Assembly (NCBI RefSeq): GCF_036588685.1
Contig: NC_086373.1
Location: 27,590,001 to 27,654,000, forward strand
Direction of reading: 5' to 3'
From: Mytilus trossulus
Taxonomy: Eukaryota
Length of the DNA: 64,000 nt
The first letter of the stretch is position 1; each line of letters starts with the position of its first letter. A model generated the notes under the pieces. It had not been told where the DNA came from, searched no databases, and worked only from the letters and a program-made list of their open reading frames with translations. Positions 3,488 to 25,500 of this stretch are shown one piece after another. The translations under genes and the position numbers were made by a program.

Positions 3488-3910
3488 TTAGTTATCAAAG
3501 GTACCAGGATTATAATTTAGTACGCCAGACGCGCGTTTCGTCTACATAAGACTCATCAGTGACGCTCATATCAAAATATTTGTAAAGCCAAACAAGTAAA
3601 AAGTTGAAGAGCGTTGAGGATCCAAAAGTCCAAAAAATTGTGCCAAATACGGCTAAGGTAAACTATGCCTGGGATAAGAAAATCCTTAGTTTTTCGGTAA
3701 TTCAAAGTTTTGTAAATAGGAATTTATAAAATGACCACATTTTTTATATCCATGTCAACACCGAAGTGTTGACTACTGGGTTGGTGATACCTTCGGGGAC
3801 GAAACGTCCACCAGCAGTGGCATCGATCCAGTGTTGTAAATAGTTATCAAAGGTACCAGGATTATAATTTAGTCTACAATAGACTCATCAGTGACGCTCA
3901 TATCAAAATA
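3488..3910 (-). mobile_element. Retrozyme-like repeat: full 352-bp monomer plus the start of a second head-to-tail copy
   Basis: TAGTTATCAAAGGTACCAGG at 3489 and again at 3841 (period 352 bp); in the second copy the GAAA/stem III part of the hammerhead is deleted. Confidence 0.85.
3522..3565 (-). ncRNA. Type I hammerhead ribozyme (intact core)
   Basis: Same 44-nt sequence as 3184-3227. Confidence 0.9.
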
Positions 3911-3982
3911 TTATAAATGATCAATATCTGACTGTTTTAATCTCATTGAAGGAAGTAGATACATGAATTAGTTATAAAAAAA

Positions 3983-5308
3983 TTATGAAAACAAAGGAAA
4001 ATCTAGTACAATTCCAAGAATATACAATAAATGTGCTACTACCATATAAAGTGCACTGAAAATGCCAAAAACAAAGTCAAGTTCTTCTCCGACATTCTTC
4101 CAGGTAATCTCCTCTTTAGAGGTAAAAGAGTTGATTTCCTCACTATTCGTTCCTCTATACTGATACTCTGATCCGTAGAGTTTTATTTTACTGATATCCA
4201 AACTATCATTGCTTTCATGTTTGTCTGTATTCTCGTCACCTTTACCTTTCGCCCCTTTCCTGCAGCAGCAACCGCATCTAAGTACACGACAAATCTTCAC
4301 AAATCTTTCTCCAAGATATGAAACGGGAATATTTTCATCACGCAGATAATAACGTAGACTTGTAATGACTAGTATAACAATTACGCCACTAAATGCGACG
4401 TCAGCAAAAAGAAGAATTGATAATGTTGGTATTTGTGGATCTGAGATTGCCGGAAGACCAGAGGCGGAAATTGTTAGAAATACGGCAATAGCCAACAATA
4501 CTGTAATAGAAAATCCAACGCGTTCTCCTGAATCTGCTGGTAGTAGAAAGACAAATGGATTAAGAATACACATAAGAACTATTGGCAGTATTAGGTTGAA
4601 AACAAAAAACATAGGCTTTCTCTTCAGTTTCATATGAAAATTTGCCACCTGTGGAACGGCAATTTTGGTCAGATTCGTTTCAACCAAATCCCATGTTTTA
4701 TGTGGGACAAACCATTCAGTTATAAAAGCTGTTGGCCATAATATTACCTCTTTTTCGTCATATGTTGATAAAACAAATGCTAAAGTACATGTTTGTGTAT
4801 CGAATGGATAATCTGTAACATCAGCTTGGCATGAAATATCGAATGCATCGCTTGGAAACCAATCAATTTGTCCAGTATAATGCACCCTCTTTACACTATC
4901 ATCTTTATATAATATTTTTTGTTCTCCATACGGATTTGACATTATAAAGGTTGGTTTCCAAAATAATTCTTCATTGAATGTAAAGGAAGAAGCGCCATAT
5001 TCGCTAGGATCCCATGACACAGTATTGTCTCTCCACTGAACTCCAAAAAATCCATTTAAACTTAATTTTCCGGCAACTTCGTCGAATTCCTGAATATAAG
5101 TCATATGAAAATAAAAGTAAATTATAACAGGTTCGTCCCATTTGTTGACAGGTCTCACCTCTTTGTTTCTTCCATTTGTCACATTTTGTATAAGTTCCTG
5201 TATAGGTTTGTATTCCTCCTTTTTCGATTTATCTTCTTTCTCTTCATCAGCATTGGTATTTAGTAGAAATGATAATATTATAATGATAGAGCACCAATAA
5301 GAAAACAT
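3983..5308 (-). CDS. Intronless Cys-loop ligand-gated ion channel, divergent non-alpha nAChR-like subunit (441 aa)
   Basis: Signal peptide; VRPV, FDEV and WKP motifs; Cys-loop CQADVTDYPFDTQTC; KRKP-M1; PADSGER-M2; four TM segments; no vicinal cysteines. Confidence 0.93.
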   Translation of the reverse strand: MFSYWCSIIIILSFLLNTNADEEKEDKSKKEEYKPIQELIQNVTNGRNKEVRPVNKWDEPVIIYFYFHMTYIQEFDEVAGKLSLNGFFGVQWRDNTVSWDPSEYGASSFTFNEELFWKPTFIMSNPYGEQKILYKDDSVKRVHYTGQIDWFPSDAFDISCQADVTDYPFDTQTCTLAFVLSTYDEKEVILWPTAFITEWFVPHKTWDLVETNLTKIAVPQVANFHMKLKRKPMFFVFNLILPIVLMCILNPFVFLLPADSGERVGFSITVLLAIAVFLTISASGLPAISDPQIPTLSILLFADVAFSGVIVILVITSLRYYLRDENIPVSYLGERFVKICRVLRCGCCCRKGAKGKGDENTDKHESNDSLDISKIKLYGSEYQYRGTNSEEINSFTSKEEITWKNVGEELDFVFGIFSALYMVVAHLLYILGIVLDFPLFS

Positions 5309-6159
5309 TTTTACAACTCGCGTTTAAATTAAATCCAGTTTAAAATGAATCGTAGTAAATTGTTTAGTAAATATTTTTACGTTAATACCGTATTCATAAT
5401 ACCTATTCATGTGTGAAACACTCAAGAAGGCTTATTAAAGGTTATCTAATTACAATGAATGTTTGTCACTCTTACCCTTTAAAGCTTTTATCGTCTTTAT
5501 CCTTATGTAAAAAAAAAAGAATTTAGCGATAGTTATTATATATTGTTTAGTTAAGTATTTCTCCAAATACTTTTAAATAAACGATAATTTAATAGTTTTC
5601 TGGTGATTTCTGTTGGCATGCTAACCAATTTTGTTTAACTGATCTATTAATGTCTAATGGTTAAATGTAACCATATTTTTTTAACAAACAAATTGTTGTT
5701 TATACATATGACAAGCCACACCATAAAATATTTACACCGTTATTGGCAGTGGGTTGCTAAGTTATACAAAATGAAAAGTAATTTGTCCGGTTTTCCACTT
5801 ACCAACTTAAGGATGGTTCCTCCTCTATTTTTTTAATATTTGCCAGATTTTAAGAATCCACTGGTTTTATCCATGTATTAACATTTAAAAAATGTGCCTA
5901 GTAACCCCTACTTTTCTTTTCATGATTTTATAACATAAAGTTTAAAACGACATATTTCAAAATTTGATAAAATCTTTTTTTTCCATAGTTTTCCAACGTT
6001 AAATGTATAAAAAAGTCTAGACAGAATTATTTTCAGCCATTTCAATGGCTTATATCTGAAAAACAAAAACAAAAAACACATACTTTCTTTTTTTCTGCTT
6101 TTTATTTTTTTTATAAAAACTATCCATTCATAGCAGTCTTTTAAAAATCTTGTTTGTTT

Positions 6160-6887
6160 TTGTCTCGCCTTGACGGAGTCAAAAAGCGAGATAAAGATAT
6201 GCTGTTTCCGGCGTCGGCGACGACGATATCAAAAATGTATTAGTTTGTGATTAGGTCTAGTTTATGGTGAACCACACGTGATAGGTCAATCATATTTGGT
6301 ATGCAGTTGTATAAGCACTGGCACACCTAATTTCCTTGGAGATTATTTAGCTCTGTCCCCTCAGTTATGGTTTATTGACTTTGATTTTTTTCTCTATGTT
6401 ATCATGTATTAGTTTGTGATTAAGTCAGTTCAAGGGGAACCATTAGTGGTAGGCCAATGTTAATTGGTATTCAGTTGTATAAGCATTGGCACATCTCATT
6501 TCTATATATTTGGCCTCGACCCTCAGTCACAGTCTAATGACCTTGAACCTTATCTTAGTTTACATGTATTACTTTGTGCTTAGATCAGTTTAAGATGAAC
6601 TGCTAATGTAAAGTCAATTTTATTTGGTATGCAAATTTATTGGCATTTGCAAGTATCGTTTCCACGGAGATTATATAGCCCCACCCCTCTTCATGGTTCA
6701 TTGACCCTAAACCTTTTACATAGTTTACATGTTCATGTTTGTATTAAGGTTTGGGAACAACTTATAATAAGTCAATGGTATTTGGTAAGCAGTTGTATTG
6801 GCATCGGCACATCTCATTTACATGGAGATTGTTTAGCCATGTAACTCAGTCAGGGTTCATTGACATATCTCTGTGATAACAGTTTTT
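6160..6887 (+). mobile_element. Helentron/HINE-like non-autonomous element with four ~165-170-bp internal tandem units
   Basis: T-rich flank; 5' inverted TCTCGC..GCGAGA; CGGCGT/CGA microsatellite; units starting near 6237, 6406, 6566 and 6739; 3' hairpin CTGT-GATA-ACAG followed by Ts. Confidence 0.65.
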
Positions 6888-7014
6888 AATCAGAGTAGCT
6901 CACATCCTTAAACCAATACTCTAAGTTTCCATAACTTCCAATAGTCACATATAAGGAGTATAGTTGTCTTTTAAAATGTATCTGAGATTCTGCTTAGACT
7001 GTATCATCAGCGTA

Positions 7015-7235
7015 TAAATAAACTCATCAGAGACACCAGGTTTAAAAATTTATTTATACGTCAGTATTGTTTTCAGTAAATTTATAATTATGAACATATC
7101 AATAATAATTCAAAACAATACAGAGTGCTGACTACTGGGTTTGTGATACCCTCGGGGAAATAAATCTCCACCAGCTGTGTTATCGACCCAGTTGTTTTAA
7201 ATAAACTCATCATAGATACCAGGATTAAAAATTGA
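7015..7235 (-). mobile_element. Decayed retrozyme-like repeat (hammerhead deleted)
   Basis: AATAAACTCATCA..ACCAGG start occurs twice; GACTACTGGG..CCACCAGC block present. Confidence 0.75.
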
Positions 7236-7257
7236 TATAAAAGGACAGACAATTTTA

Positions 7258-7352
7258 AATAAAAGAGGGACGAAAGATACCAAAGGGACAGTCAAACTCC
7301 TAAATCTAAAACAAACTGACAACGCCATGGCTAAAAATGAAAAAGACAAACA
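7258..7352. mobile_element. Dispersed repeat fragment (AAAGAGGGACGAAAGATACCA family)
   Basis: Second copy at ~53630-53800. Confidence 0.65.
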
Positions 7353-7849
7353 CACCTTCTTTATTATTATTATTCTCTGAAAACATTTAAAAAAAAAAGG
7401 AAAGGAGAGATAATTCAGAGAGGTTGTCTCCCTGGAACTCCAATGGAACAAGGGAAAAGATCCGACTACTCTGATCAAAAGTGTGAATATGTAATTTGAT
7501 ATTCTTGTACATGTTGACAGTAACGGTTTTAATCGACTGTTTTTATGTTTTAATCAGAGCCCAGACTACAAAATGCACAATACAGTTTCTTGTTGTTTGT
7601 TTTGAACAACTCAAATAGTAAATTTACAAAAAAAATCCACTATAGAACAATATTTTATGAAGCCCACCTTATTTTCTTTTCATATCAATTCATCATCCAA
7701 CAAAGAACTAAATCTGTAATTTGAGACAGGGGTTGACAGTTAAGTTTGGTAATTGTACAAAATGCCTCTAACTTGAGATGTTCGACGTAAAATTAAACAG
7801 CTGCCTTGTGTTGTTCTCAATCCGTTAATATATATAACTTATATTATAT

Positions 7850-8320
7850 ATGGTGTAGCATTCTACTGTTTTCATTGGCTATGACGATCACAGGTATTCG
7901 AAGCCTCGCTTCTATCTTAAGGTATCTTGATGCTTTTTTCTGTTTCTATGTATATTGACGACCAGAATAAAAACAAATCTTGCTAAATTTTGATTTGTGA
8001 CGTCATTACGTCAAACATAACAACCATGGACGAAGCGCCGCAGCAGACGAAAAGAAAATTTCCAAGTTTAAATGCAGACTTTTAAGATTCAAGAAAGTAA
8101 TACAACAAGATATGAAGTTGTTCAAAGAATATGATATTTTAATGTTAACATTATTGCAAAATGCGATTTAAAAATTCACCGACAGAACACTGATACAGGA
8201 CTTTCACTCAATACGTTATATAATGGACCTGTTAGATCATATTGACAATCGGTTAATATAATCTGAACAGGTCCATATATAACATATTGATCTCGTACAA
8301 AGTCAATAATTGATAAATAA
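7850..8320 (+). mobile_element. Hairpin-ended relic element, possibly Crypton-derived
   Basis: ATTGGCT box; short decayed ORF start MDEAPQQTKRKFPSL; imperfect inverted repeat 8199-8304; same layout as 1128-1492. Confidence 0.4.
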
Positions 8321-8501
8321 TCATAAATAAATAATCAGCAGATGCACAATAATATTTTACGCTTCTAACAACAAAATATCATGATGAATTTTTCATGTAC
8401 TGTTTTTTTTTTTTGGATTCGGTAAAATATTTTTACTTAGGAAAAGATCTATCTCTCTCTCTCCAATTGTGTTTGTATTTCATGCTTCAGAGATCAAAAA
8501 C

Positions 8502-8559
8502 AAACGCGCGTCTGGCGTAAATATAAAATTTCAATCCTGGTATCTATGATGAGTTTATT
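8502..8559 (+). mobile_element. 3' stub of retrozyme-like repeat
   Basis: AAACGCGCGTCTGGCGT...CCTGGTATCTATGATGAGTTTATT. Confidence 0.75.
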
Positions 8560-9134
8560 CACCCCCATCTCATATGTAAGAATTTGTGTAGGTCTGACGA
8601 TCCAGTTTTCCGTGAAGACAGTCAGAGTACGACTAAATGGCAAACTAAATTTTTGACAGTTTAAATTTCCATTCTTTGAAATCAATTTTACGATTTTACA
8701 GAGTATGTTTTCTATAGAAAAGCTAAAAATCTAAATAGAAAGAGAGTATCGATGTATTTCTTCCAAATAATTAACTTTCATAAGTTTTAACTGCATTATC
8801 AGGAGATAACACTTTAATTTTAATAATAAATTTATTACACGAGAGATGGCCTAGTTCTGCCTGATGTTGTAATGAAATATTTTAATGATATCGTATTAGT
8901 GTAAGTGCGACTGCTAAGCTGACTGTATTTTTTTTCGTTTTTCAAAATTAAAAAAGTGTTAAAAACTATTTGAAAAAATATAATTTTCAATTGATTTTCA
9001 CAATGTCAGAGATGTATTCTATTGATTATGTTAAATTATAATTTCAAATTGTGAAATATCAAACAGTTGCATTCCAGGTTCATTCCGTTGCCTGTAAGAT
9101 TATTCATAATTACTTGATTGTGGAAGGATTAAAG

Positions 9135-10337
9135 ATGCTTGTTTTTATCATTTGTTTTTCTACTGTCAGTTTTTCTTTATGTCAAAACTCAAGTGATTTC
9201 AAAGCTCTGAAAAAGGAGCTATTCTTTTCAAAGGAATATGATAAAGATTCAAAACCTGTACAAGATTATAAGAGTACCATCTACGTAAATGTTGAATTGA
9301 CATTAAACTCACTTATAACACTCGATGAAGTTCAACAAAGATTAACAACTATTGGATACCTTCATATTAGCTGGTATGATGAGTTCCTAACATGGGACCG
9401 AACACAATATGGAGACTTAGATTATATATACCTTCCTCAGTCAAGCATCTGGAAACCGGATATAACTTTACAAGATAGTTATACAGAGATGGAAGAGCTA
9501 GGTTCCGATTTGATTTTGGCGACAATCAAACATGATGGTAGTGTCAGTTGGACACCATTTCAAGTGTTTAATTCATACTGCCCAGTCTCAATGACATTCT
9601 TTCCATTTGACAGGCAAACTTGTGAATTTGTTTTCGGAGCTTGGAGTATGCAAATGAACGATATTTCCCTTCTCATAACAAATGTATCAGGAATAGCATT
9701 AGAGCGCTCTATAAAGGAAAATACAATTTGGACGGTTGTTTCCACCTCAGTAAAAGCAACACAGTACCATGAAGAATCTAGAGTGATATTTTCTATCACA
9801 TTACAGAGGAAACCGTTGTATGTAATGATGCATTTAGTCCTCCCGTTAGTCCTATTAACACTTTTGAATCTGTTTACATTTGCCATACCTGCTGATAGTG
9901 GTGAACGCATGGGTTACACGGTAACCGTTTGGTTGTCCTTCGGTGTATTCCTTACTCTTGTTGGACAGTCTCTTCCAGAGAGTTCGGAATCCATATCTTT
10001 TATGGATATATTTATAGTGATGCAGCTTTTCCAAAGCACACTGGTAGTGTTACTTTCAGCCGTTTTATCCAGATTAATCGCTCGAAATGGACAGACATTT
10101 ATTTCGTCATGTCTCCTAAAACGCATTGTCACCTATAAGAGAGGAAAGAGTGTGAACACAGCATCGGAGATAAAGAACGATGAAAAGGAAACTCAAATTT
10201 ACATTACCTGGAAAGAGTATGTGTCCACTATTGATTTCTGCGTGTTTTGGTGTTTGCTGTCAATATGCATCCTACTGATAACTGCACTTTCATTCTACAC
10301 TGTTTACAAAGCTGAATATACGCTTTCAGGGGAATGA
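9135..10337 (+). CDS. Intronless non-alpha nAChR-like subunit (400 aa), paralog A
   Basis: First ATG at 9135 opens a signal peptide (the ORF-track start 9051 is GTG); WKPDITL; Cys-loop CPVSMTFFPFDRQTC; FGAW; PADSGER; four TMs. Confidence 0.93.
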   Translation: MLVFIICFSTVSFSLCQNSSDFKALKKELFFSKEYDKDSKPVQDYKSTIYVNVELTLNSLITLDEVQQRLTTIGYLHISWYDEFLTWDRTQYGDLDYIYLPQSSIWKPDITLQDSYTEMEELGSDLILATIKHDGSVSWTPFQVFNSYCPVSMTFFPFDRQTCEFVFGAWSMQMNDISLLITNVSGIALERSIKENTIWTVVSTSVKATQYHEESRVIFSITLQRKPLYVMMHLVLPLVLLTLLNLFTFAIPADSGERMGYTVTVWLSFGVFLTLVGQSLPESSESISFMDIFIVMQLFQSTLVVLLSAVLSRLIARNGQTFISSCLLKRIVTYKRGKSVNTASEIKNDEKETQIYITWKEYVSTIDFCVFWCLLSICILLITALSFYTVYKAEYTLSGE

Positions 10338-11081
10338 ACAAAATTCCTATCACAAACCGTACACGTACTTCAGAAAAGGGACTGCAATTTAATTTAGTCA
10401 TATACGTTTTTATTCATTCTTTTATCCGTGTGGCTTTAGTGTAAGATATATGAGGAGATGGAATTAGTAGAAACAAAGCCTGGCATTTTGTTTAATTTAT
10501 AATTGTATTGTACCGCTTTCATCAACATTTTTGATTACACAAATGAATATTCAGTGTTGGCGCACAAACATGATGTACATATGACTGATCGTTAGCTTTA
10601 TATTGTAATTCTCTTTTTTCTTTTCTCTTGTATTCTTAGTTTCAATACTCATTCTTGCCATACGCTTGTTGTCTTCTATTAGCTTTATTACTTTTTTTCT
10701 TCATAATTTAAGGAACAACTCATTAGAGGATTACATTTTCTATTAAATTTAAGCGTTATGCTTATACACTTTCTCTTCAAATGATGACTTTATTCAGAAA
10801 TGACTTGCCTGTTACCTTTAGTACGTTTTTAGATAGAACGTTCACATCAATGCACTATTGATGACGTCGATTAGTTTAAAACCAGTTAGATCATGAACGT
10901 ATATGTGTAATGACACTTCAATTGTTAGATAAAGGTATACCGAATATCCTGGTAAAAAAATATCGAACTTTTGATTACCAAGTACCAAACTCCAATTTGT
11001 ATCGTGATGTCTAAAGACTTATCATTACTTAATAACATATGTCATCTATCGAGGCAAAATTATAGCGAGACCCTCACAGCT

Positions 11082-11580
11082 CACAGAAACAAATCAGTAA
11101 TACACTACGAAGAGATAATATGTAAACAATATTATCAGGTAATGAACTCATCAGTGATGAGAAAAACAAATATATTTAAAAGTTGTACAATGTTTTATTT
11201 AAGAAACAGGAAGATTTGCTTCATTAACAATTATTTTTATGTCGATTTAGAAGTTGAAACTTTAATTTAATGTAACCTTATTTTCGAAACATTATTACAT
11301 TTCTCATCTGCATGTGAGGCCACAATTATAAAAAAAAATAAGGAATGAGTTGATCATATTTTTCGATCAAACTGACTTCTGAGTAACAGGCAAACAACAG
11401 AATAAACCTGTCATGTGAATTAAAAATGTTAGTATACGAGTTTTTATACTATGCTCCTATTATGTTATTTTTTTAAAAGGAAATGGATTTATATAAGTTC
11501 TTCTGGTTTCCAAATCCCAGTTTTTGTTATTGTATAATTGTATTTTGTGCACTTTTTGAAAATAAAATATTGTTTAAACT
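11082..11580 (+). mobile_element. 5'-truncated LINE 3' end
   Basis: Absent from the paralogous position in copy 2; decayed ORF2-like C-terminus (..LISDEKNKYI.KVVQCFI.ETGRF); ends AATAAAATATTGTTTAAACT. Confidence 0.7.
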
Positions 11581-11960
11581 AAGTATGGTATGAGACATCT
11601 GTATCAATCTATAACAAAAACGTATTGTGTTGTGATAACGTTGAAAGAAAAAGACATTCAATATAAATTCATGGCTTTAAATATGATTGCATTTCTTTCT
11701 AGAAATATAGATCGTCATGTCCTTCTTATATTAGTGTTATGCAATAACGTTAAAGTTCTACCATTAATTTGAGGTTTGGAATTAGTTAGGTTTTTTTGCC
11801 TTTTTTGGGGATAAGACTTTTTTTTGTAGTTTTAATAGACGGGATATTCGTAGCTTGGCTTAATTCTGTTCACTTTGTACTCAGTTAATATTTTCTTAAA
11901 TCCTCCTGTCCTCTCTCAGAAATTCAAATGGTCTGTACTGTTCATACAGAGATACCTTTT

Positions 11961-12619
11961 ATAATAAACTTATCATAGATACCAGTATTAAAATTTTAGA
12001 CGCGCGTTTCGTCTACAAAAGACTCACCAGTGACGCTTGAATCAAAAACAGTTTAAAAGGCCAAACAAAGTACGAATTTGAAGAGCATTGAAGACCAAAA
12101 ATTCCTCAAAGTTTTGCCAAACACAGCAAAGGTAATCTATTCTTGAGGTAGAAAAGCCTTAGTATTTAAAAATCAAGTTTTGTTAACAGTTAACTCATTA
12201 TTATGAACATATTAATGATAACTCAAGTCAACACAGAAGTGCTGACTACTGGGCTGGTCTTACCCTCGAGGAAGTAAATCTCCACCAGCAGTGGCATCAA
12301 CCCAGTGGTTGTAAATAAACTCATCATATATACCATGAGTAACATTTTATATTTACGCCAGACACATGTTTCGTCTACAAAACAAATAAATGTTTAAAAG
12401 GCCAAATAAAGTATGAAGTTGAAAAGCATTGAAGACCAAAAAATCTTAAAAGATTTGCCAAATACAGCTGAGGTAGAAAAAAAAAAGAATTTTAATAATA
12501 CAAAGTTTTGTTTACAGTTAACTTATTATTATGAAAATATCAATGATAGCTTTAGTCAACACAGAAGTGGTGACTACTGGGCTAGCGATACCCTCGAGGA
12601 ACTAAATCTCCACCAGCAA
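11961..12619 (-). mobile_element. Retrozyme-like repeat, about two head-to-tail decayed monomers
   Basis: Unit starts near 11963 and 12314; hammerheads mutated (CUGGUGA with stem I deleted; second lacks CUGAUGA); empty site in copy 2 near 27865. Confidence 0.85.
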
Positions 12620-13069
12620 GCTGATATGATAATATGATTCCTATATAAACCAGTATAGCAATTAGGAAAAGCATAAACAATATACTGTTTAATAAACCCG
12701 ACATGTCCAATATAAACTGACAACATAGTTACACTTGTAAAATCGAGATAAGTAATATTAGATGGTATAATCCCAAGGAAAAAGTTCAAATGCGTGCTAT
12801 TTGATGTCAGAATATATATTAACTACAATGTTAAGTGTGTCACGATGTGGTTAGCCACAAATTGTGTCCTAGAATCACGTTTTAAGTTCGTTTTCTTCAG
12901 GCAAGAACACTGTAAAAGGAGAAAAGGAAAGAAATTAACAATTTTAAACTAGTGGTAAATGGACATCCGATATGATGAAATATTTTACTGTAAGTTCAGA
13001 AATATTTACGATGTATTTATTTTAGCGAAAACGGCAACAGGTTCGGTTTTGAAAAGGTGAAAACTCACC

Positions 13070-13340
13070 TATTAAGCCCAATTTATATGCATTATGTTTT
13101 CTGGTCTGTGCGTCCGTTGGTTCGTCCGTTCGTCCGTCCGTTCGTCTGTCCCGCTTCAGGTTAAAGTTTTTGGTCGAGGTAGTTTGAGATGAAGTTGAAG
13201 TCCAAGCAACTTTAAACTTAGTAAACATGTTCCCTGTGATATGATCTTTCTAATTTTAATGCCAAATTAGAGATTTTATCCCAACATAGAAAATGATAGT
13301 GTAGATGAGGCATCAGTGTACTTGGGACACATTCTTGTTT
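13070..13340 (+). mobile_element. Short HINE/Helentron-like insertion with (CGTC/CGTT)n tract
   Basis: GTCC-type microsatellite; 3' hairpin GTGTAC..GGACAC then ATTCTTGTT; absent in copy 2 near 28340. Confidence 0.7.
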
Positions 13341-13749
13341 AAATATTGCAATAATTATTTGAATGCATTATGTTCCCAAAGCGCAGTAATAAATCTCGCG
13401 TTTTACCATTGTCCAACAATCATAATTACAAATGGAGTCAAAAGTTTCTGAATTTACAGTCATTGAACGGCGCAGTGTTCCAAAAGGATATACTTTATAA
13501 AGTTATCAGTGAAAAACACAATCAATGTGTGGTTACTTAACAATAAATTCAAACTAGTCAAAACCAGTATTTATAAATGAACATCGAGTTATAGAAAAAT
13601 AACTGATTTGGTTTTCTTTTTCCTTTTTTAAAGTTAAATGCTATTTAATATATATATTTTTATATTGTTAAGTTTTTATTCGAAAGTCTATTTTTTGTAA
13701 ACAAACACCAAACACTAACAGAAACAATGACAGCATTTTATGATCTTTT

Positions 13750-13955
13750 AAATATACTCATTATAGATACCAGGATTAAAATTTTATATTTAGGCCAGAC
13801 GCGCGTTTTGTCTACAAAAGACGCTGCAGTGACGCTCGAATAAAAAAAAGTTAAAAAGGCCAAATAAAGAGCGAAGTTAACGAAAGAGGACCAAACATTC
13901 CTAAATGTTTGCCAATGCACCTAAGATAATCTATTCCTGAGGTGGAAAACCCTTA
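13750..13955 (-). mobile_element. Decayed retrozyme-like repeat
   Basis: Family sequence; hammerhead boxes mutated (CUGCAGC, GAAA lost). Confidence 0.8.
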
Positions 13956-14173
13956 AAAGTGTGTGGGTTGACTATTTATGTCCAAATGTGACCACTTCCC
14001 TTCAATTTACATATTAGAAATAAAGTAACATTTTTTTTTCTCGAAAAATTTCTGAAATATTTACCATTTAATAAATCTGACAACAACGCATTGGTTTGTG
14101 TTTGTTTAACATGACTTTAAGAGCCAATCAGGCAGTGGTGAGTATAACAAACAAAACCCCAATCAAGTTGACA

Positions 14174-14461
14174 TTAATTTATATTCTAAATGTATAATAG
14201 TGCATGAATATAACATTTGTTACCTTTTCCTGTTCTTGTAATCAAGATATAATTTGGTTGAAATGCACATAAATCAACAATTGACGGGATCTAACTCCGT
14301 AAATTGAAATTCTTCTAACCTAGAATTTCAATTTACGGAGTTAGATCCCGTCAATTGTTGATTTATGTGCATTTCAACCAAATTATATCTTGATTACCAG
14401 AACAGGAAAAGGTAACAAATGTTATATTCATGCACTATTATACATTTAGAATATAAATTAA
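14174..14461. repeat. 288-bp near-perfect palindrome (140-bp arms, 8-nt loop)
   Basis: Arms 14174-14313 and 14322-14461 are reverse complements with one mismatch seen; loop TCTAACCT; TTAA at both outer ends. Confidence 0.95.
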
Positions 14462-15285
14462 AATTAAAATTATAGCGAACATTTATTGTTGCAATGTCAG
14501 GGAAAACTGTATATATCTGAATATCTGCCATGTTTTGATTGATAATTTGCATATTTTTTAAAGTCTGGCATGCACTTCAAATCAGCAAATATTTTTTCAG
14601 ATACACAACACGCTTTTGACATCAAGGTAGCACGATTGGTTGTTACGTTTTAGCTTTCTTGGATTGTGTTTTTTGTATATTTTCAAGGACATGCATTTTT
14701 TTATCTGCTTGTTTGATTCGTAAAGTTGGTGCTTGTTTTTTTTATCTTGTTTCATGTTTCAGTGTACTTTATTTTTTTCTAAATGTGAAGCGCATAGATT
14801 TTTTTGTTATTATATAATGCACTCTATAATAGTGCATATATTCATTTATTTATAATGCGTGCGAGATTAAATTTATAAAATCAATTTACGCATCACAGAA
14901 AATAGAAGCATGATGAATTATTCCTGACAATAAATTCTATAATTATAAAAAGGGATTCAAAATTCTTAAATTTAATTCACAGGAGATGTCTTAGTTATGT
15001 CGGATAGGAATTTTTAATGACGCATTTTAATGAAATCGTGTCCGTGTAAGTGAGAATGCTAAACCGCATCTATTCTTTTGTGTTTTAAAATGAAAAAGTG
15101 AGCAAAAACTGTATCTATATTTTTTTTAAAGCTTGAATTGATTTTTACAAAGTCAGAAAAGTATTCTATTGATCCTTTAAAATTACAATTTTAAAGTGTG
15201 AACTACCAAAGAGTTGCATTCCTGGTTTATTTCGTTGCCTGCAAGATTATTCATAATCAATTTAATTATTGTGGAAGGATTAAAG

Positions 15286-16488
15286 ATGATTGTTTTTATC
15301 ATTTGGATTTCTACTGTAAGTTTTTCTTTATGCCAAAACTCAAGTGATGTCAAAGCTTTGAAAAGAGAGCTATTCGTAACTAAGGAATATGATAAGGATT
15401 CCAAACCTGTACAAGATTATGAGAGTACCATCTACGTAAATGTTGAATTGACATTAAACTCACTAATAACACTCGATGAAGTTCAACAAAGATTAACAAC
15501 TATTGGATACCTTAATATAAGTTGGCATGATGAGTTTCTAACATGGGACCGAAAACAATATGGAGACTTGGACTATATATACCTTCCTCAGTCAGAGATC
15601 TGGAAACCGGATATAACCTTACAAGATAGTTATACAGGGATGGAAGAGCTTGGTTCTGATTTGATATTGGCGACAATCAGACATGATGGTAGTGTCAATT
15701 GGACACCGTTTCAAGTATTTAATTCATACTGTCCAGTCTCAATGACGTTCTTTCCATTTGACAGGCAAACTTGCGAATTTGTTTTCGGAGCTTGGAGTAT
15801 GCGTCTGAAAGATGTTTCCCTTCTAATAAAAAATGTGTCAGAAATAGCATTGGAGCGCTCAATAAAAGAAAATACAATTTGGACGGTTGTTTCAACCTCA
15901 GCAAGTACAGCACAGTACCATGAGGAATCTCTAGTGATATTTTCTATCACATTACAGAGGAAACCGTTGTATGTTATGCTGAATATGGTTCTCCCATTAG
16001 TCCTTTTATCACTTTTGAATCTGTTTACATTTGCCATACCTGCTGATTGTGGTGAACGCATGGGTTACACGGTAACCGTTTGGTTGTCCTTCGGTGTGTT
16101 CCTTACTATAATTGGACAGTCTTTGCCAGAGAGTTCGGAATCCATATCTTTTATGGATATATTTATAGTGATGCAGCTATTCCAAAGTACACTGGTGGTG
16201 TTGCTCTCAACCATTGTATCCCGATGTTGTGCTCGAAATGGACAGACATTTATTTCGTCATGTCTCCTGAAACGCATTGTAACCTATAAGAGAGGAAAGA
16301 GTGTGAACACATCATCGGAGATTACGAACGATGCAAAGAAAACTCAAATTTACATTACATGGAAAGAGTATGTGTCCACTATTGATTTCTGTTTGTTTTG
16401 GTGTTTGCTGTCAATATGCATACTTTCAATTACCGCACTTTCATTTTACACCGTTTACAAAGCTGAGTACACGCTTTCAGGAAAATGA
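15286..16488 (+). CDS. Intronless non-alpha nAChR-like subunit (400 aa), paralog B
   Basis: ATG at 15286 (the ORF-track start 15214 is TTG); same motifs and length as paralog A; about 45 aa differences counted by eye. Confidence 0.93.
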   Translation: MIVFIIWISTVSFSLCQNSSDVKALKRELFVTKEYDKDSKPVQDYESTIYVNVELTLNSLITLDEVQQRLTTIGYLNISWHDEFLTWDRKQYGDLDYIYLPQSEIWKPDITLQDSYTGMEELGSDLILATIRHDGSVNWTPFQVFNSYCPVSMTFFPFDRQTCEFVFGAWSMRLKDVSLLIKNVSEIALERSIKENTIWTVVSTSASTAQYHEESLVIFSITLQRKPLYVMLNMVLPLVLLSLLNLFTFAIPADCGERMGYTVTVWLSFGVFLTIIGQSLPESSESISFMDIFIVMQLFQSTLVVLLSTIVSRCCARNGQTFISSCLLKRIVTYKRGKSVNTSSEITNDAKKTQIYITWKEYVSTIDFCLFWCLLSICILSITALSFYTVYKAEYTLSGK

Positions 16489-16979
16489 ATAACAATTCTT
16501 TTACAAACCATACAAGTATGAGGACTGAAAAATGAGTCAGTCGTGAATGTTTTTTTTTTCATTTTATCATTATGGCTAAACTGCAAGATATGCATTGTAG
16601 AAGGAGATGGGTTCAGTAGAAGCAAAGCCTGGAAATTTGTTTAATTGTTTAATTGTATTGTACCGCTTTTATCAACATTTTCATTTACACAAATGAGTAT
16701 TCAGTGTTGGCGCACAAACATGATGTACATATGACTGCTCGTTTGTAATTATATCATGAATTATTTTTTTTCAATATTCATTATATGCCATAAGCTAGCT
16801 ATCGTCTATTAGATTCACTGTCATTATTTTTCTTAATAATTTAATGTCCATGAGAACACTTAAATTTTTATCCAAATTCAAGCGGTAAGCTTATGCAGTT
16901 CTATCTCAAATGATGACTAAATTATAATTTATTTCTATGCCTGAAACCTTTAATACTTTCTTCAAAAATGTCCCCAATC

Positions 16980-18145
16980 TCTGTCACTAAGAAGCGGAAT
17001 CCTATTCATTATGAAAACCTCGTCTCTGGTTATACCCTTCTTCATTGTTATATCTTGCCACTAATTGATTATTCATGAATACCTCATCCTTGGTCATATC
17101 CTTCTTCATTGTTATATCTTGCCATTAATTGATTATTGTGGTATAGGTTGGGTAAGATCTCTCTAACTAAGAAGCGGAACCCAATTCATCATGAATACCT
17201 CATCCTTGGTTATACCCTTCTTCATTGTTATATCTTTCCACCAATTGATTAATCATGAATACCTCATCTCTGGTTATACCCTTCTTCATTGTTAAATCTT
17301 GCCACTAATTGATTAATCATGAATACCTCATCTCGGGTTATACCCTTCTTCATTGTTATATCTTGCCACTAATTGATTAATTATGAATACCTCATCTCTG
17401 GTTATACCCTTCTTCGTTGTTATATCTTGCCACTAATTGATTAATCATGAATACCTCATCTCTGGTTATACCCTTCTTCATTGTTATATCTTGCCATTAA
17501 TTGATTAATCATGAATATCTCATCCTTGGTCATACACGTTGTACCCTTCTTCATTGTTATATCTTGCCACTAATTGATTATTGTGGTATAGTTTGGAGTA
17601 TATCGCTCTCACTGAGAAGCGGAACCTAATTCATCATGAATACCTCATCATTGGTCATACCCTTCGTCATTGTTATATCTTTCAACCAATTGATTAATCA
17701 TGAATACCTCATCTCTGGTTATACCTTCTTCATTGTTATATCTTGCCACTAGTTGGTAAATCAGGAATACCTCATCTCTGGTTATACCCTTCTTCATTGT
17801 TATATCTTGCCACTAATTGATTAATCATGAATACCTCATCTCTGGTTATACCCTTCTTCATTGTTATATCATGCCACTGATTTATTAATCATGAATACCT
17901 CATCTCTGGTTATACCCTTCTTCATTGTTATATCTTGCCACTAATTGATTAATCATGAATACCTCATCTCGGGTTATACCCTTCTTCATTGTTATATCTT
18001 GCCACTAATTGGTTAATCATGAATACCTCATCGTTGGTTATACCCTTCTTCGTTGTTATATCTTGCCACTAATTGATTAATCATGAATACCTCATCCTTG
18101 GTCATACCCTTCTTCAGTGTTATATCTTGTCACTAATTGATTACA
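16980..18145 (+). repeat. 64-bp minisatellite (~16 units, with interspersed longer variant) derived from LINE coding sequence
   Basis: Unit CATGAATACCTCATCTCTGGTTATACCCTTCTTCATTGTTATATCTTGCCACTAATTGATTAAT; long variants translate YILPLIDYCGIVWS. Confidence 0.9.
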
Positions 18146-18464
18146 CGTTATATAGTTTGGAGTAGTTGTAGCAGTCGGTGGTTTAATTAGGATCTTAAAA
18201 TTACAAAAGAGAGCTGCTAGATTAATACTAGAAACAGACCTTTTTGCTACTTCTGAACCCTAATGGGTTATTGAAACAATTAAACTGGAATATTATAGTT
18301 TTCAATACAACTTGAAAAATGTCAGAAAATTAAACGTGATAACATACCCAAACAGTTTTCAATATTTTTGTATGAATAAAATTGATGTATATACTGTCTT
18401 CTGATTGGTTAAAAATAACTGTGTAACCCTTCTAAAATAAAATATTGTTGTTGCTGTTGTTGTT
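18120..18464 (+). mobile_element. Decayed CR1/L2-group LINE ORF2 fragment with AATAAA-(GTT)n tail
   Basis: IVWSSCS..LIRILKLQKRAARLIL motif; tail AAAATAAAATATTGTTGTTGCTGTTGTTGTT. Confidence 0.75.
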
Positions 18465-19178
18465 GACTCAGCAAAATATTTAGGCTTTGACATATCAAAA
18501 GACTTATCTTGAAACACCCACACAAATGCTGTCACTTAGAAGGCAAACGACACCCTTTCTATCCAAAGAATAATCATCGGAAAGTGTCGAATAAAAGCCA
18601 GATAACGAGCATTTAACACCTTCGTAAGACCAACTGTAGAGTACGCCACAAGTGCATGTGACCCCTACAAAAAACCAACTTGAATTGGTTCAATGCAGAG
18701 GAGCCACATTTCTTTCCAACGACTACCAACAAACAAGCAGTGTTAGTCTCATGCTCAATAACCTTGGATGGGAAACCCTGCAATCAAGAAGAAACAAATT
18801 TATAACCATCTTACTTTACAAGATAGTCATTCACCTTGTAGACATCCCAATAGAACCATATCTCATACTAACATTTCTACGTTTCTACTCGATAACAGAA
18901 CATCAGATACCTCCAACCACACTGTCGAATCCTAACATACCAACATTCCTTCTATCTGAGCGCCATCGGAATTTGGAACTACCTGCCACAGCCACTGGCC
19001 AGTTTAACAACTCTCGATGGGTTCAAACTGCCTACCTCTATCATCTCCTTAATTGTAATTAATGGATTTTAACTATAAATATTTAATTGTATATAGAGGA
19101 TAGCATTAGTGGTATTGTAGGTTTACACCAGTGTGAATATATACAAAATGAGTCCGACATAGAAGAAGCAGTAGAAGA
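18465..19178 (+). mobile_element. Second decayed LINE ORF2 3' fragment
   Basis: DSAKYLG..ISKDLS, VRPTVEYA and LELVQ..DYQQTSSVSLMLNNLGWETLQSRR..LLYKIV motifs with stops and frameshifts; GAA-rich tail. Confidence 0.85.
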
Positions 19179-19380
19179 ACAACAAAAGTCACCAATGAAA
19201 TGTTGAAGTCGATTGGTTAAAAACCAGTAAGATCATGGAAGTATATTTATATTGACAAAGGTTAAATCGAGTATCCCGGGCATAAATACGATTTTTTATT
19301 CACCATTTAAGCTGTTAAAAATGTACAAAACCCTAACTTGTATCGTGATGGCTAAAGACTCATCGGTACTCACTAACATA

Positions 19381-19564: not shown

Positions 19565-22500
19565 ATGTCACCCGTCCAGACAAAATTATAGCGAGACCCT
19601 CACAGCTAAGTATGGTTTTAGATATCGTTATAGTTTAAAACTCGTCGGTACTCAGTAACATTTGTCACCTGTCGAGACAACATTAAAACGTGACCCTCAT
19701 AGCTAAGTATGGTTTTAGATATCGTTATGGCTTAAGACTCATCGGTGCCCAGTAACATCTGTCACCTGTCGAGACAACATTTATGCGAGACCCTCACTGC
19801 TAAGTATGGTTTATGATATCGTTATGGCTTAAGATTCATCGGTACTCAGTAACATTTGTCACCAGTCGAGACAACATTAAAACGTGACCCTCATAGCTAA
19901 GTATGGTTTATGATATCGTTATGGCTTAAGATTCATCGGTACTCAGTAACATTTGTCACCAGTCGAGACAACATTAAAACGTGACCCTCACAGCTAAGTA
20001 TGGTTTTAGATATCGTTATAGTTTAAAACTCGTCGGTACTCAGTAACATTTGTCACCTGTCGAGATAACATTAAAACGTGACCCTCATAGCTAAGTATGG
20101 TTTATGATATCGTTATGGTTTAAAACTCATCGGTACTCAGTAACATCTGTCACCTGTCGAGACAACATTAAAACGTGACCCTCATAGCTAAGTATGGTTT
20201 ATGATATCGTTATGGCTTAAGACTCATCGGTACTCAGTAACATTTATCACCTGTCGAGACAACATTAAAGCGAGAACCTCACTGCTAAGTATGGTTTATG
20301 ATATCGTTATGGCTCAAGACTCCTCGTTACTCAGTAACATCTGTCACCTGTCGAGACAACATTAAAGCGAGACCCTCACTGCTAAGTATGGTTTATGATA
20401 TCGTTATGGCTTAAGACTCATCGGTACTCAGTAACATCTGTCACCTGTCGACGAGACAGCATTGAAGCGGGACCCTCACTGCTAAGTATGGTTTATGATA
20501 TCGTTATGGCTTAAGATTCATCGGTACTCAGTAACATCTGTCACCTATCGAGACAACATTAAAGCGAGACCCTCACAGCTAAGTATGGTTTCTGATATCG
20601 TTATGGCTTAAGACTCATCGGTACTCAGTAACATCTGTCACCTGTCGAGACAACATTAAAGCGAGACCCTCACTGCTAAGTATGGTTTATGATATCGTTA
20701 TGGCTTAAGACTCATCGGTACTCAATAACATCTGTCACCTGTCGACGAGACAGCATTGAAGCGGGACCCTCACTGCTAAGTATGGTTTATGATATCGTTA
20801 TGGCTTAAGATTCATCGGTACTCAGTAACATCTGTCACCTATCGAGACAACATTAAAGCGAAATCCTCACAGCTAAGTATGGTTTCTGATATCGTTATGG
20901 CTTAAGACTCATCGGTACTCAGTAACATCTGTCACCTGTCGAGACAACATTAAAGCGAGACCCTCACTGCTAAGTATGGTTTATGATATCGTTATGGCTT
21001 AAGACTCATCGGTACTCAATAACATCTGTCACCTGTCGAGACAACATTAAAACGTGACCCTCATAGCTAAGTATGGTTTATGATATCGTTATGGTTTAAG
21101 ACTCATCGGTACTCAGTAACATCTGTCACCTATCGAGACAACATTTAAGCGAGACCCTCACTGATAAGTATGGTTTATGATATCGTTATGGCTTAAGACC
21201 CATCGGTACTCAGTAACATCTGTCACCTGTCGAGACAACATTAAAGCGAGACCCTCACTGCTAAGTATGGTTTATGATATCGTTATGGCTTAAGACCCAT
21301 CGGTACTCAGTAACATCTGTCACCTGTCGAGACAACATTAAAACGTGACCCTCATAGCTAAGTATGGTTTATGATATCGTTATGGCTTAAGATTCATCGG
21401 TACTCAGTAACATTTGTCACCAGTCGAGACAACATTAAAACGTGACCCTCACAGCTAAGTATGGTTTTAGATATCGTTATAGTTTAAAACTCGTCGGTAC
21501 TCAGTAACATTTGTCACCTGTCGAGACAACATTAAAACGTGACCCTCATAGCTAAGTATGGTTTATGATATCGTTATGGTTTAAAACTCATCGGTACTCA
21601 GTAACATCTGTCACCTGTCGAGACAACATTAAAACGTGACCCTCACAGCTAAGTATGGTTTATGATATCGTTATGGCTTAAGACTCATCGGTACTCAGTA
21701 ACATCTGTCACCTGTCGAGACAACATTTATGCGAGACCCTCACTGATAAGTATGGTTTATGATATCGTTATGGCTTAAGATTCATCGGTACTCAGTAACA
21801 TCTGTCACCTATCGAGACAACATTTAAGCGAGACCCTCACTGCTAAGTATGGTTTATGATATCGTTATGGCTTAAGACTCCTCGGTACTCAATAACATCT
21901 GTCACCTATCGAAACAACATTAAAGCGAGACCCTCACTGCTAAGTATGGTTTATGATATCGTTATGGCTGAAGACTCCTCGGTACTCAGTAACATCTGTC
22001 ACCTATCGAAACAACATTAAAGCGAGACCCTCACTGCTAAGTATGGTTTATGATATCGTTATGGCTTAAGACTCATCGGTACTCAGTAACATCTGTCACC
22101 TATTGAGACAACATTTAAGCGAGACCCTCACAGCTAAGTATGGTTTTAGATATCGTTTTAGCTTCAGACTCATCGGTACTCGGTAACATCTGTCACCTGT
22201 CGAGACAACATTAAAGCGAGACCCTCACTGCTAAGTATGGTTTATGATATCGTTATGGCTTAAGACTCATCGGTACTCAGTAACATCTGTCACCTGTCGA
22301 GACAACATTTATGCGAGACCCTCACTGATAAGTATGGTTTATGATATCGTTATGGCTTAAGATTCATCGGTACTCAGTAACATCTGTCACCTATCGAGAC
22401 AACATTTAAGCGAGACCCTCACTGCTAAGTATGGTTTATGATATCGTTATGGGTTAAGACTCCTCGGTACTCAATAACATCTGTCACCTATCGAAACAAC

Positions 22501-25500
22501 ATTAAAGCGAGACCCTCACTGCTAAGTATGGTTTATGATATCGTTATGGCTGAAGACTCATCGGTACTCAGTAACATCTGTCACCTATCGAAACAACATT
22601 AAAGCGAGACCCTCACTGCTAAGTATGGTTTATGATATCGTTATGGCTTAAGATTCATCGGTACTCAGTAACATCTGTCACCTATCGAAACAACATTAAA
22701 ACGTGACCCTCACAGCTAAGTATGGTTTATGATATCGTTATGGTTTAAGACTCATCGGTACTCAGTAACATCTGTCACCTATCGAGACAACATTTAAGCG
22801 AGACCCTCACTGCTAAGTATGGTTTATGATATCGTTATGGCTTAAGACTCATAGTTACTCAGTAACATCTGTCACCTGTCGAGACAACATTAAAACGTGA
22901 CCCTCATAGCTAAGTATGGTTTATGATATCGTTATGGCTTAAGACTCATCGGTACTCAGTAACATTTATCACCTGTCGAGACAACATTAAAACGTGACCC
23001 TCACAGCTAAGTATGGTTTATGATATCGTTATGGCTTAAGACTCATCGGTACTCAGTAACATCTGTCACCTGTCGAGACAACATTAAAACGTGACCCTCA
23101 CAGCTAAGTATGGTTTTAGATATCGTTATAGTTTAAAACTCGTCGGTACTCAGTAACATTTGTCACCTGTCGAGACAACATTAAAACGTGACCCTCATAG
23201 CTAAGTATGGTTTATGATATCGTTATGGTTTAAAACTCATCGGTACTCAGTAACATCTGTCACCTGTCGAGACAACATTAAAACGTGACCCTCACAGCTA
23301 AGTATGGTTTATGATATCGTTATGGCTCAAGACTCCTCGGTACTCAGTAACATCTGTCACCTGTCGAGACAACATTAAAGCGAGACCCTCACTGCTAAGT
23401 ATGGTTTATGATATCGTTATGGCTTAAGACTCATCGGTACTCAGTAACATCTGTCACCTATTGAGACAACATTTAAGCGAGACCCTCACAGCTAAGTATG
23501 GTTTTAGATATCGTTTTAGCGTCAGACTCATCGGTACTCGGTAACATCTGTCACCTGTCGAGACAACATTAAAGCGAGACCCTCACTGCTAAGTATGGTT
23601 TATGATATCGTTATGGCTTAAGACTCATCGGTACTCAGTAACATCTGTCACCTGTCGAGACAACATTTATGCGAGACCCTCACTGATAAGTATGGTTTAT
23701 GATATCATTATGGCTTAAGATTCATCGGTACTCAGTAACATCTGTCACCTATCGAGACAACATTTAAGCGAGACCCTCACTGCTAAGTATGGTTTATGAT
23801 ATCGTTATGGCTTAAGACTCCTCGGTACTCAATAACATCTGTCACCTATCGAAACAACATTAAAGCGAGACCCTCACTGCTAAGTATGGTTTATGATATC
23901 GTTATGGCTGAAGACTCATCGGTACTCAGTAACATCTGTCACCTATCGAAACAACATTAAAGCGAGACCCTCACTGCTAAGTATGGTTTATGATATCGTT
24001 ATGGCTTAAGATTCATCGGTACTCAGTAACATCTGTCACCTATCGAAACAACATTAAAACGTGACCCTCACAGCTAAGTATGGTTTATGATATCGTTATG
24101 GTTTAAGACTCATCGGTACTCAGTAACATCTGTCACCTATCGAGACAACATTTAAGCGAGACCCTCACTGCTAAGTATGGTTTATGATATCGTTATGGCT
24201 TAAGACTCATAGTTACTCAGTAACATCTGTCACCTGTCGAGACAACATTAAAACGTGACCCTCATAGCTAAGTATGGTTTATGATATCGTTATGGCTTAA
24301 GACTCATCGGTACTCAGTAACATTTATCACCTGTCGAGACAACATTAAAACGTGACCCTCACAGCTAAGTATGGTTTATGATATCGTTATGGCTTAAGAC
24401 TCATCGGTACTCAGTAACATCTGTCACCTGTCGAGACAACATTAAAACGTGACCCTCATAGCTAAGTATGGTTTATGATATCGTTATGGCTTAAGATTCA
24501 TCGGTACTCAGTAACATTTGTCACCAGTCGAGACAACATTAAAACGTGACCCTCACAGCTAAGTATGGTTTTAGATATCGTTATAGTTTAAAACTCGTCG
24601 GTACTCAGTAACATTTGTCACCTGTCGAGACAACATTAAAACGTGACCCTCATAGCTAAGTATGGTTTATGATATCGTTATGGTTTAAAACTCATCGGTA
24701 CTCAGTAACATCTGTCACCTGTCGAGACAACATTAAAACGTGACCCTCACAGCTAAGTATGGTTTTTGATATCGTTATGGCTCAAGACTCCTCGGTACTC
24801 AGTAACATCTGTCACCTGTCGAGACAACATTAAAGCGAGACCCTCACTGCTAAGTATGGTTTATGATATCGTTATGGCTTAAGACTCATCGGTACTCAGT
24901 AACATCTGTCACCTATTGAGACAACATTTAAGCGAGACCCTCACAGCTAAGTATGGTTTTAGATATCGTTTTAGCTTCAGACTCATCGGTACTCGGTAAC
25001 ATCTGTCACCTGTCGAGACAACATTAAAGCGAGACCCTCACTGCTAAGTATGGTTTATGATATCGTTATGGCTTAAGACTCATCGGTACTCAGTAACATC
25101 TGTCACCTGTCGAGACAACATTTATGCGAGACCCTCACTGATAAGTATGGTTTATGATATCGTTATGGCTTAAGATTCATCGGTACTCAGTAACATCTGT
25201 CACCTGTCGAGACAACATTTATGCGAGACCCTCACTGCTAAGTATGGTTTATGATATCGTTATGGCTTAAGACCCATCGGTGCCCAGTAACATCTGTCAC
25301 CTATCGAGACAACATTTAAGCGAGACCCTCACTGCTAAGTATGGTTTATGATATCGTTATGGCTGAAGACTCATCGGTACTCAGTAACATCTGTCACCTA
25401 TCGAAACAACATTAAAGCGAGACCCTCACTGCTAAGTATGGTTTATGATATCGTTATGGCTTAAGATTCATCGGTACTCAGTAACATCTGTCACCTGTCG

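Follow-up and report, generated by a model that had tools for sequence, protein, structure and literature searches.

Three intronless nicotinic-type receptor genes of Mytilus trossulus belong to a bivalve branch whose pore is fixed and whose ligand pocket varies

In five bivalve species, 99 to 217 genes for nicotinic acetylcholine receptors (nAChRs) have been counted, many of them intronless and arranged in tandem (PMC6896357). Three genes of this type, here called A, B and C, lie in a 64,000-nucleotide stretch of the genome of the mussel Mytilus trossulus (assembly GCF_036588685.1, contig NC_086373.1, positions 27,590,001 to 27,654,000; about 32% GC and no N), which we call the window. According to the same survey, the principal sites are complete in only 13 of the 132 oyster nAChR genes, nAChR expression in the species examined peaks in the gill, some members are expressed earlier than choline acetyltransferase (ChAT), and expression of family members was also seen in gonad and early embryos and in response to infection; diverse ligands were already suggested there for the expanded members. 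Independent moves to non-canonical ligands have also been proposed for molluscan nAChR clades (PMC13174522). In cephalopods, the chemotactile receptors (CRs) are intronless nAChR derivatives that have lost the acetylcholine residues, have a diversifying pocket and are chemosensory (PMC11526382; 10.1101/2025.10.28.685082). The initial annotation of this DNA, made from the sequence alone, had drawn on both bodies of work: the large intronless tandem expansions of bivalves are confirmed by PMC6896357, and the description of CRs as nAChR derivatives without acetylcholine residues agrees with PMC11526382. In the literature that we searched, with subscription journals mostly outside coverage, we found no functional test or ligand assignment for an expanded bivalve member.

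A, B and C are intact, ordinary members of this published orphan expansion of intronless bivalve nAChRs, and the bivalve branch to which they belong reverses the canonical pattern, in that its pore is fixed and its pocket variable. Protein searches with A and B yielded 144 relatives, of which the 125 that measured 340-530 aa were aligned and 19 were dropped for length; after leaving out fish alpha7 and frog 5-HT3A rows, the alignment held 123 rows, namely the three genes and 120 relatives, many of them unnamed and assigned to bivalves by tree position only. Bivalves account for 43 of the 44 species-named matches of A and for 21 of the 22 of B, a further protein search adds Sinanodonta, Mactra and Mya, and the branch spans mussels, oysters, scallops, clams and freshwater mussels. 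The nearest relatives of the three genes are thus many bivalve paralogues, a membership known from sequence and trees rather than from the exon structure of the matches. None of the 123 rows has the vicinal cysteines; loop C spans 25-29 residues in 117 of them, the loop A Tyr is present in two and the loop B Trp in 77. The pore is nearly fixed, with Gly -2', Glu -1', Thr 6' and Leu 9' in every row and Val 13' in 120. Since they are shared across the 123 rows, the features of A, B and C are not special to the locus. Among Mytilus orthologues, the pocket residues are almost identical.

The pattern of the branch emerges from a comparison with canonical receptors. The controls came from a search with alpha7: of 150 representatives, 118 cover the core, 96 with vicinal cysteines (alphas) and 22 without; from the latter we took a beta-type set of 12, in which eight members were looked up, only some of them being named beta, and the rest were classed by tree position. 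In 63 bivalve-branch rows the unweighted entropy is higher in the pocket than in the rest of the extracellular domain (3.23 versus 2.44 bits), also after weighting (3.15 versus 2.45, p 0.019), whereas the corresponding unweighted values are 1.75 versus 1.96 in the 96 alphas and 1.40 versus 1.34 in the small set of 12 betas. Pore entropy is 1.36 in the alphas, 0.89 in the betas and 0.57 in the bivalve branch. All 63 bivalve rows keep at most two of the five aromatic-box residues; the five are complete in 84 of the 96 alphas, and at least three are present in 10 of the 12 betas. Likewise, the loop D Trp is found in 10 of the 12 betas as against 9 of the 123 bivalve-family rows. By entropy, a diversifying pocket such as that of the cephalopod CRs is therefore observed at the level of the family. 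A separate observation concerns two representatives, P0299 and P0308 (one from freshwater mussels), which combine the five aromatic-box residues with missing vicinal cysteines and represent a different route to non-alpha status.

Trees were computed on 120 rows and 295 columns (48 bivalve-branch rows, 45 randomly drawn alphas, 21 rows without the vicinal cysteines and six others). In these quick trees without bootstrap, the bivalve rows fall on one side of a branch with a Shimodaira-Hasegawa-like approximate likelihood ratio test (SH-aLRT) value of 97 under LG+G4 and of 99 under LG+C20 with posterior mean site frequencies (PMSF), and a clade that contains all beta rows excludes the bivalve branch with values of 92 and 99. 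What this analysis adds is a single bivalve branch that stands apart from canonical alphas and betas in the best trees and whose pore is invariant while its pocket is hypervariable.

At the locus itself, each gene is an uninterrupted open reading frame (ORF), which, together with a gap-free contig over gene A, bears out the initial description of the genes as intronless; tblastn found no further copy of A, B or C within the window. The Pfam domains PF02931 (ligand-binding, E 1e-32 to 1e-45) and PF02932 (transmembrane) score above cut-off in all three. AlphaFold2 models of A and B (mean predicted local distance difference test scores of 84 and 77, respectively) display a beta-sandwich together with four membrane helices, and their beta9-beta10 hairpin is tight. 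Their structural matches are nicotinic receptor chains (Z about 31, 21-29% identity), with a root-mean-square deviation of 1.9 over 343 aligned residues for A and of 5.2 over 360 for B, and matches in the ESM Atlas are generic Cys-loop clusters only. Judged by sequence and modelled fold, A, B and C are subunits of Cys-loop pentameric ligand-gated channels of the nAChR type. Their nearest relatives are proteins of three other Mytilus species (89-98% identity): A has orthologues in M. galloprovincialis (93%) and M. coruscus (89%), and B has one in M. edulis (98%). A public M. trossulus model corresponds to gene C and is identical over 300 residues. Automated annotation names the orthologues 'alpha-3-like' and 'delta-like' receptors.

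Residues were scored against alpha7, with the beta9 Trp and the pre-M1 Arg as the limits of the loop C span. The Cys-loop is intact (C160-C174 in A, C149-C163 in B and C) and the GER motif precedes M2 in the three genes, as had been noticed at the outset. With Glu -1', no Pro -2', Leu 9' and Val 13', all three carry a cation-type pore by sequence and are predicted to be cation channels. The vicinal cysteines that define an alpha subunit are missing from loop C, whose span is 25 in A and 27 in B and C compared with 33 in alpha7; both losses had been described correctly, and so had those of the minus-strand gene A, which has Ser at the loop A Tyr site and at the loop B Trp site and no Tyr in loop C. 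In B and C, the loop A Tyr site is occupied by Gln. Over loops A, B, C and D, gene A retains one of the five aromatic-box residues, and B and C two each. On the strength of these residues, none of the three could form the principal face of a site for acetylcholine. For the pair B and C, the initial annotation was right about the loop A Tyr and about a Trp at M2 8', which is not a pore-facing position. That this Trp is unusual did not hold up: we reject it as a special feature, because it is a subclade trait (Trp in 17 and an aromatic residue in 33 of the 123 rows).

As to the history of the locus, the reported cluster of three exists and includes a tandem pair, B and C, the product of a duplicated unit of about 2 kb whose copies are 83% identical over 2038 columns (blastn). 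Gene A lies head-to-head with B, 3.8 kb apart, but shares just 25% identity with that pair and belongs to another subclade of the tree, so that one recent tandem array of three is rejected. The coding sequences of B and C are 90.5% identical, with a ratio of nonsynonymous to synonymous change (dN/dS) of 0.21 overall (Fisher p 5e-15); the extracellular domain alone gives 0.22 and M4 gives 0.07. The overall value points to purifying selection and hence to two copies that both evolved as working proteins. Contigs of equal size suggest that the linkage of an A-type with a B-type gene is conserved in M. galloprovincialis, M. edulis and M. coruscus. At two blocks of neighbouring residues, 173-177 (15802-15816), just after loop B, and 206-209 (15901-15912), in beta9 before loop C, the sequences of B and C diverge, and a relative from M. 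coruscus combines B and C states at these two blocks.

One public automated model of gene C joins codon 300 (splice at codon 301) to a 35-codon stretch near 19099 and thereby loses M4 (16186-19203). This spliced form is probably a misprediction, and we favour the unspliced ORF because B lacks the GT in question, M4 has a dN/dS of 0.07 between B and C and two M. edulis orthologues measure 400 aa. Some other Mytilus relatives are shortened or frameshifted (304, 291, 358 and 339 aa), which reflects either gene turnover or assembly error.

Contigs from four of 24 sequencing runs were aligned to the window; the four were picked for containing this stretch, the other 20 having small shares, and X9 is the only run recorded as poly(A) RNA while the other three are guessed to be RNA. 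Gene A is covered in all four, by the long contig of X1, by X5 (4014-5214), by X6 in two pieces reaching 5321 and by short pieces in X9. Given this gap-free contig, and neighbouring unique bins (e.g. 9414-10014) that are empty in the same four runs, gene A is likely transcribed, with its coding sequence unspliced. We found no contig over gene B or C in the four runs, and contigs show presence only and are silent on expression.

Around the genes, high-copy interspersed repeats with very high summed contig depth (1000-4000, 5800-7600 and 11800-14200) flank and separate A, B and C. A minisatellite (17003-18143; 64-bp unit, 18 copies) follows directly downstream of gene C, and a satellite array (19566-27560; 97-bp unit, 82 copies, 93% matches) starts 3 kb downstream of it. 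Farther on, a single ORF on the minus strand (33462-35057) encodes a 531-aa protein with a weak B-box match below cut-off, a middle part that resembles a coiled coil and an end that is likely a beta-propeller, which we take to resemble the B-box/TRIM-like expansions of bivalves.

Features of the A, B and C locus, in window coordinates
Feature	Position	Strand	Description
Gene A	3983..5308	-	single-exon coding sequence, 441 aa, non-alpha nAChR-like subunit
Gene B	9135..10337	+	single-exon coding sequence, 400 aa, non-alpha nAChR-like subunit
Gene C	15286..16488	+	single-exon coding sequence, 400 aa, 89% identity with gene B
Gene A hairpin beta9-loop C-beta10, residues 206-230	4619..4693	-	8 residues shorter than alpha7
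M2 8' Trp codon, gene B (W266)	9930..9932	+	
M2 8' Trp codon, gene C	16081..16083	+	
X1 contig over gene A, 1438 nt, gap-free	3888..5325	-	likely transcript, no intron in the coding sequence
Duplicated unit, copy 1, with gene B	8827..10830	+	blastn
Duplicated unit, copy 2, with gene C	14967..16962	+	blastn

The combination of an invariant pore and a hypervariable pocket, unlike in the controls, would fit a ligand-diversified and likely chemosensory repertoire. From sequence and by analogy, we propose that A, B and C would be cation channels likely opened by non-acetylcholine ligands, with outside chemicals, possibly water-borne and acting at exposed epithelia such as the gill, as the likeliest candidates, and we give this reading a probability of roughly 0.4. 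The genes would have originated by retroposition and then local duplication. Family members could assemble with themselves or with one another into homo- or heteropentamers, the ligand may differ from one paralogue group to the next, and channel opening would depolarise epithelial or peripheral sensory cells. Ligands other than acetylcholine were also the central claim of the initial annotation, which the pocket and pore pattern supports; however, that pattern is family-wide and the idea was already in print (PMC6896357, PMC13174522). One could go further and imagine that the whole intronless bivalve branch is a large ionotropic chemoreceptor family independent of the CRs, of which A, B and C would be ligand-specific members, used by gill, palps, foot or larvae to taste water, food and settlement surfaces, but this wider proposal is tentative and on balance doubtful. 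The accessible main text of a paper on jingle-shell tentacles does not mention acetylcholine or nicotinic receptors and is uninformative either way (PMC11682238).

Several points weigh against outside chemicals as the ligands of A, B and C. The variable pocket could also reflect relaxed constraint on an unused site, and the non-pocket positions with which it was compared include the buried core. In the alignments, every residue loss listed for A, B and C is also found in ordinary non-alpha subunits. In Torpedo delta, for example, neither the Tyr of loop A nor the Trp of loop B is present, and loop C spans 25-27 residues in 3 of the 12 betas, one of them annotated as nematode UNC-29, for which reason we rejected the short loop C as proof of a non-cholinergic function. 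Moreover, as the initial annotation left unmentioned, B and C retain the loop B Trp and all three genes an aromatic residue in loop D (Phe in A, Tyr in B and C, never Trp), so that the complementary face is not clearly lost; the aromatic substitute for the loop D Trp could still serve there. The announced loss of the acetylcholine site thus stands for the principal side and not clearly for the other. Grouping with canonical betas, which the initial annotation had set against its own proposal, does not occur in the best trees, but a tree that forces the bivalve rows together with eight protostome betas is 13.7 log units worse and is not rejected by the approximately unbiased (AU) test (p 0.293). 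In the literature, gill-enriched nAChR transcripts of the mussel Mytilisepta have been interpreted as acetylcholine ciliary control (PMC5549309), divergent Cys-loop channels of the nematode DEG-3 group respond to internal choline and betaine (PMC8841521), and little or no expression was found for 7.7% of oyster and 31% of pearl-oyster intron-poor members (PMC6896357).

The alternative that survives best is that A, B and C answer internal signals other than acetylcholine, such as amines, steroids, betaine or choline, or else protons or metals, and do so in tissues outside synapses, for example gill, haemocytes, gonad or embryos. A fixed pore with a variable pocket is compatible with any ligand switch, the nematode channels just mentioned provide examples, and the expression of the family in gonad and early embryos and its response to infection (PMC6896357) would fit. 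However, the number of genes per bivalve and the hypervariability of the pocket exceed the needs of a few internal ligands, and the shortened or frameshifted Mytilus copies suggest turnover. We consider internal ligands rather unlikely.

Another possibility concerns ancestry only, namely that A, B and C belong to a CR-like clade that shares an ancestor with the cephalopod CRs, so that no independent invention took place. A CR-like clade extending over gastropods, bivalves and chitons has been described in a preprint (PMC13174522), and the CRs and the bivalve genes are both intronless and both devoid of the acetylcholine residues. In the score list of A's extracellular domain, squid CRB1 takes 8th place, slightly ahead of alpha7 (65 versus 62 bits). 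With the whole of A, it scores 104 bits, below alpha3 (132) and alpha7 (126), although such scores are no phylogeny. No species-named cephalopod or gastropod appears among the protein-search matches of A and B or among those of the further protein search. CR chains are also absent from the best 60 matches of either clade profile, of the second half of the extracellular domain of A and of the extracellular domain of B, as well as from the best 50 structural matches of the A and B models, an absence that does not exclude kinship. The preprint clade, furthermore, comprises 97 sequences, and it is in other clades that bivalves are enriched (PMC13174522). By score, we see no sign of a special kinship with CRs, and common descent within a CR-like clade appears unlikely.

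Less probable than internal ligands, in our opinion, is an accessory role, in which A, B and C would join canonical alphas as non-alpha subunits of acetylcholine-gated receptors, for instance in gill ciliary control, and would contribute the complementary face or only tune kinetics. Missing vicinal cysteines and missing loop A and loop C Tyr are indeed the usual state of a non-alpha subunit, the aromatic loop D of the three genes and the loop B Trp of B and C agree with such a role, the AU test does not reject a union with protostome betas, and the Mytilisepta transcripts were interpreted this way. Against it, the best trees place the bivalve branch outside the clade of alpha and beta heteromers, the loop D Trp of most betas is rare in the bivalve family, and the pockets of betas are not hypervariable. 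Finally, decaying retrocopies without a current channel role are very improbable: shortened or frameshifted relatives in other Mytilus records and many weakly expressed intron-poor members (PMC6896357) could be cited in favour, but three full ORFs, the purifying selection on B and C, close orthologues in three other Mytilus species and gene A contigs in every aligned run speak against it.

If the expanded bivalve members are chemoreceptors, they would open particle selection, settlement and the sensing of predators to molecular study, with relevance to aquaculture and antifouling, and would constitute a second example of an acetylcholine receptor that became a taste receptor. The three genes are single-exon and easy to clone, and they represent two pocket types, one without the loop B Trp (A) and one with it (B and C). 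As a kind of system, the locus is not new.

A parallel can be drawn with several known systems. The genes of Jiao et al. 2019 (PMC6896357) are, like A, B and C, bivalve, single-exon, clustered, of typical architecture and non-alpha, with principal sites unconserved. There is no difference in kind; that survey used Modiolus and Bathymodiolus, not Mytilus, and its accessible text contains no comparison of pocket and pore. Molluscan nAChRs with substituted binding residues also make up the divergent and CR-like clades among the 15 clades of MolluscaGenes (PMC13174522). With vertebrate beta2 and delta, insect beta1 and nematode UNC-29, the three genes have in common a cation pore and missing vicinal cysteines, and some canonical non-alphas have an equally short loop C or are without the Tyr of loop A and the Trp of loop B; canonical non-alphas differ in that they keep the loop D Trp and a conserved pocket and occupy another branch in the best trees. 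Alpo4 of Alvinella (PMC10338036) and DEG-3/DES-2 and ACR-23 of C. elegans (PMC8841521) are invertebrate nAChR relatives that are orphan or gated by ligands other than acetylcholine, as proposed here for A, B and C, and DEG-3/DES-2 is located in chemosensory endings (PMC8841521). Alpo4 keeps the aromatic box and the DEG-3 group the cysteine pair of loop C, whereas A, B and C keep neither. As for the cephalopod CRs, they are at a level of about 25% identity and have been shown to be gated by hydrophobic compounds in the sucker epithelium. Like CRT1 and CRB1, the bivalve genes are nAChR-derived and intronless, have lost the acetylcholine residues and possess a variable pocket.

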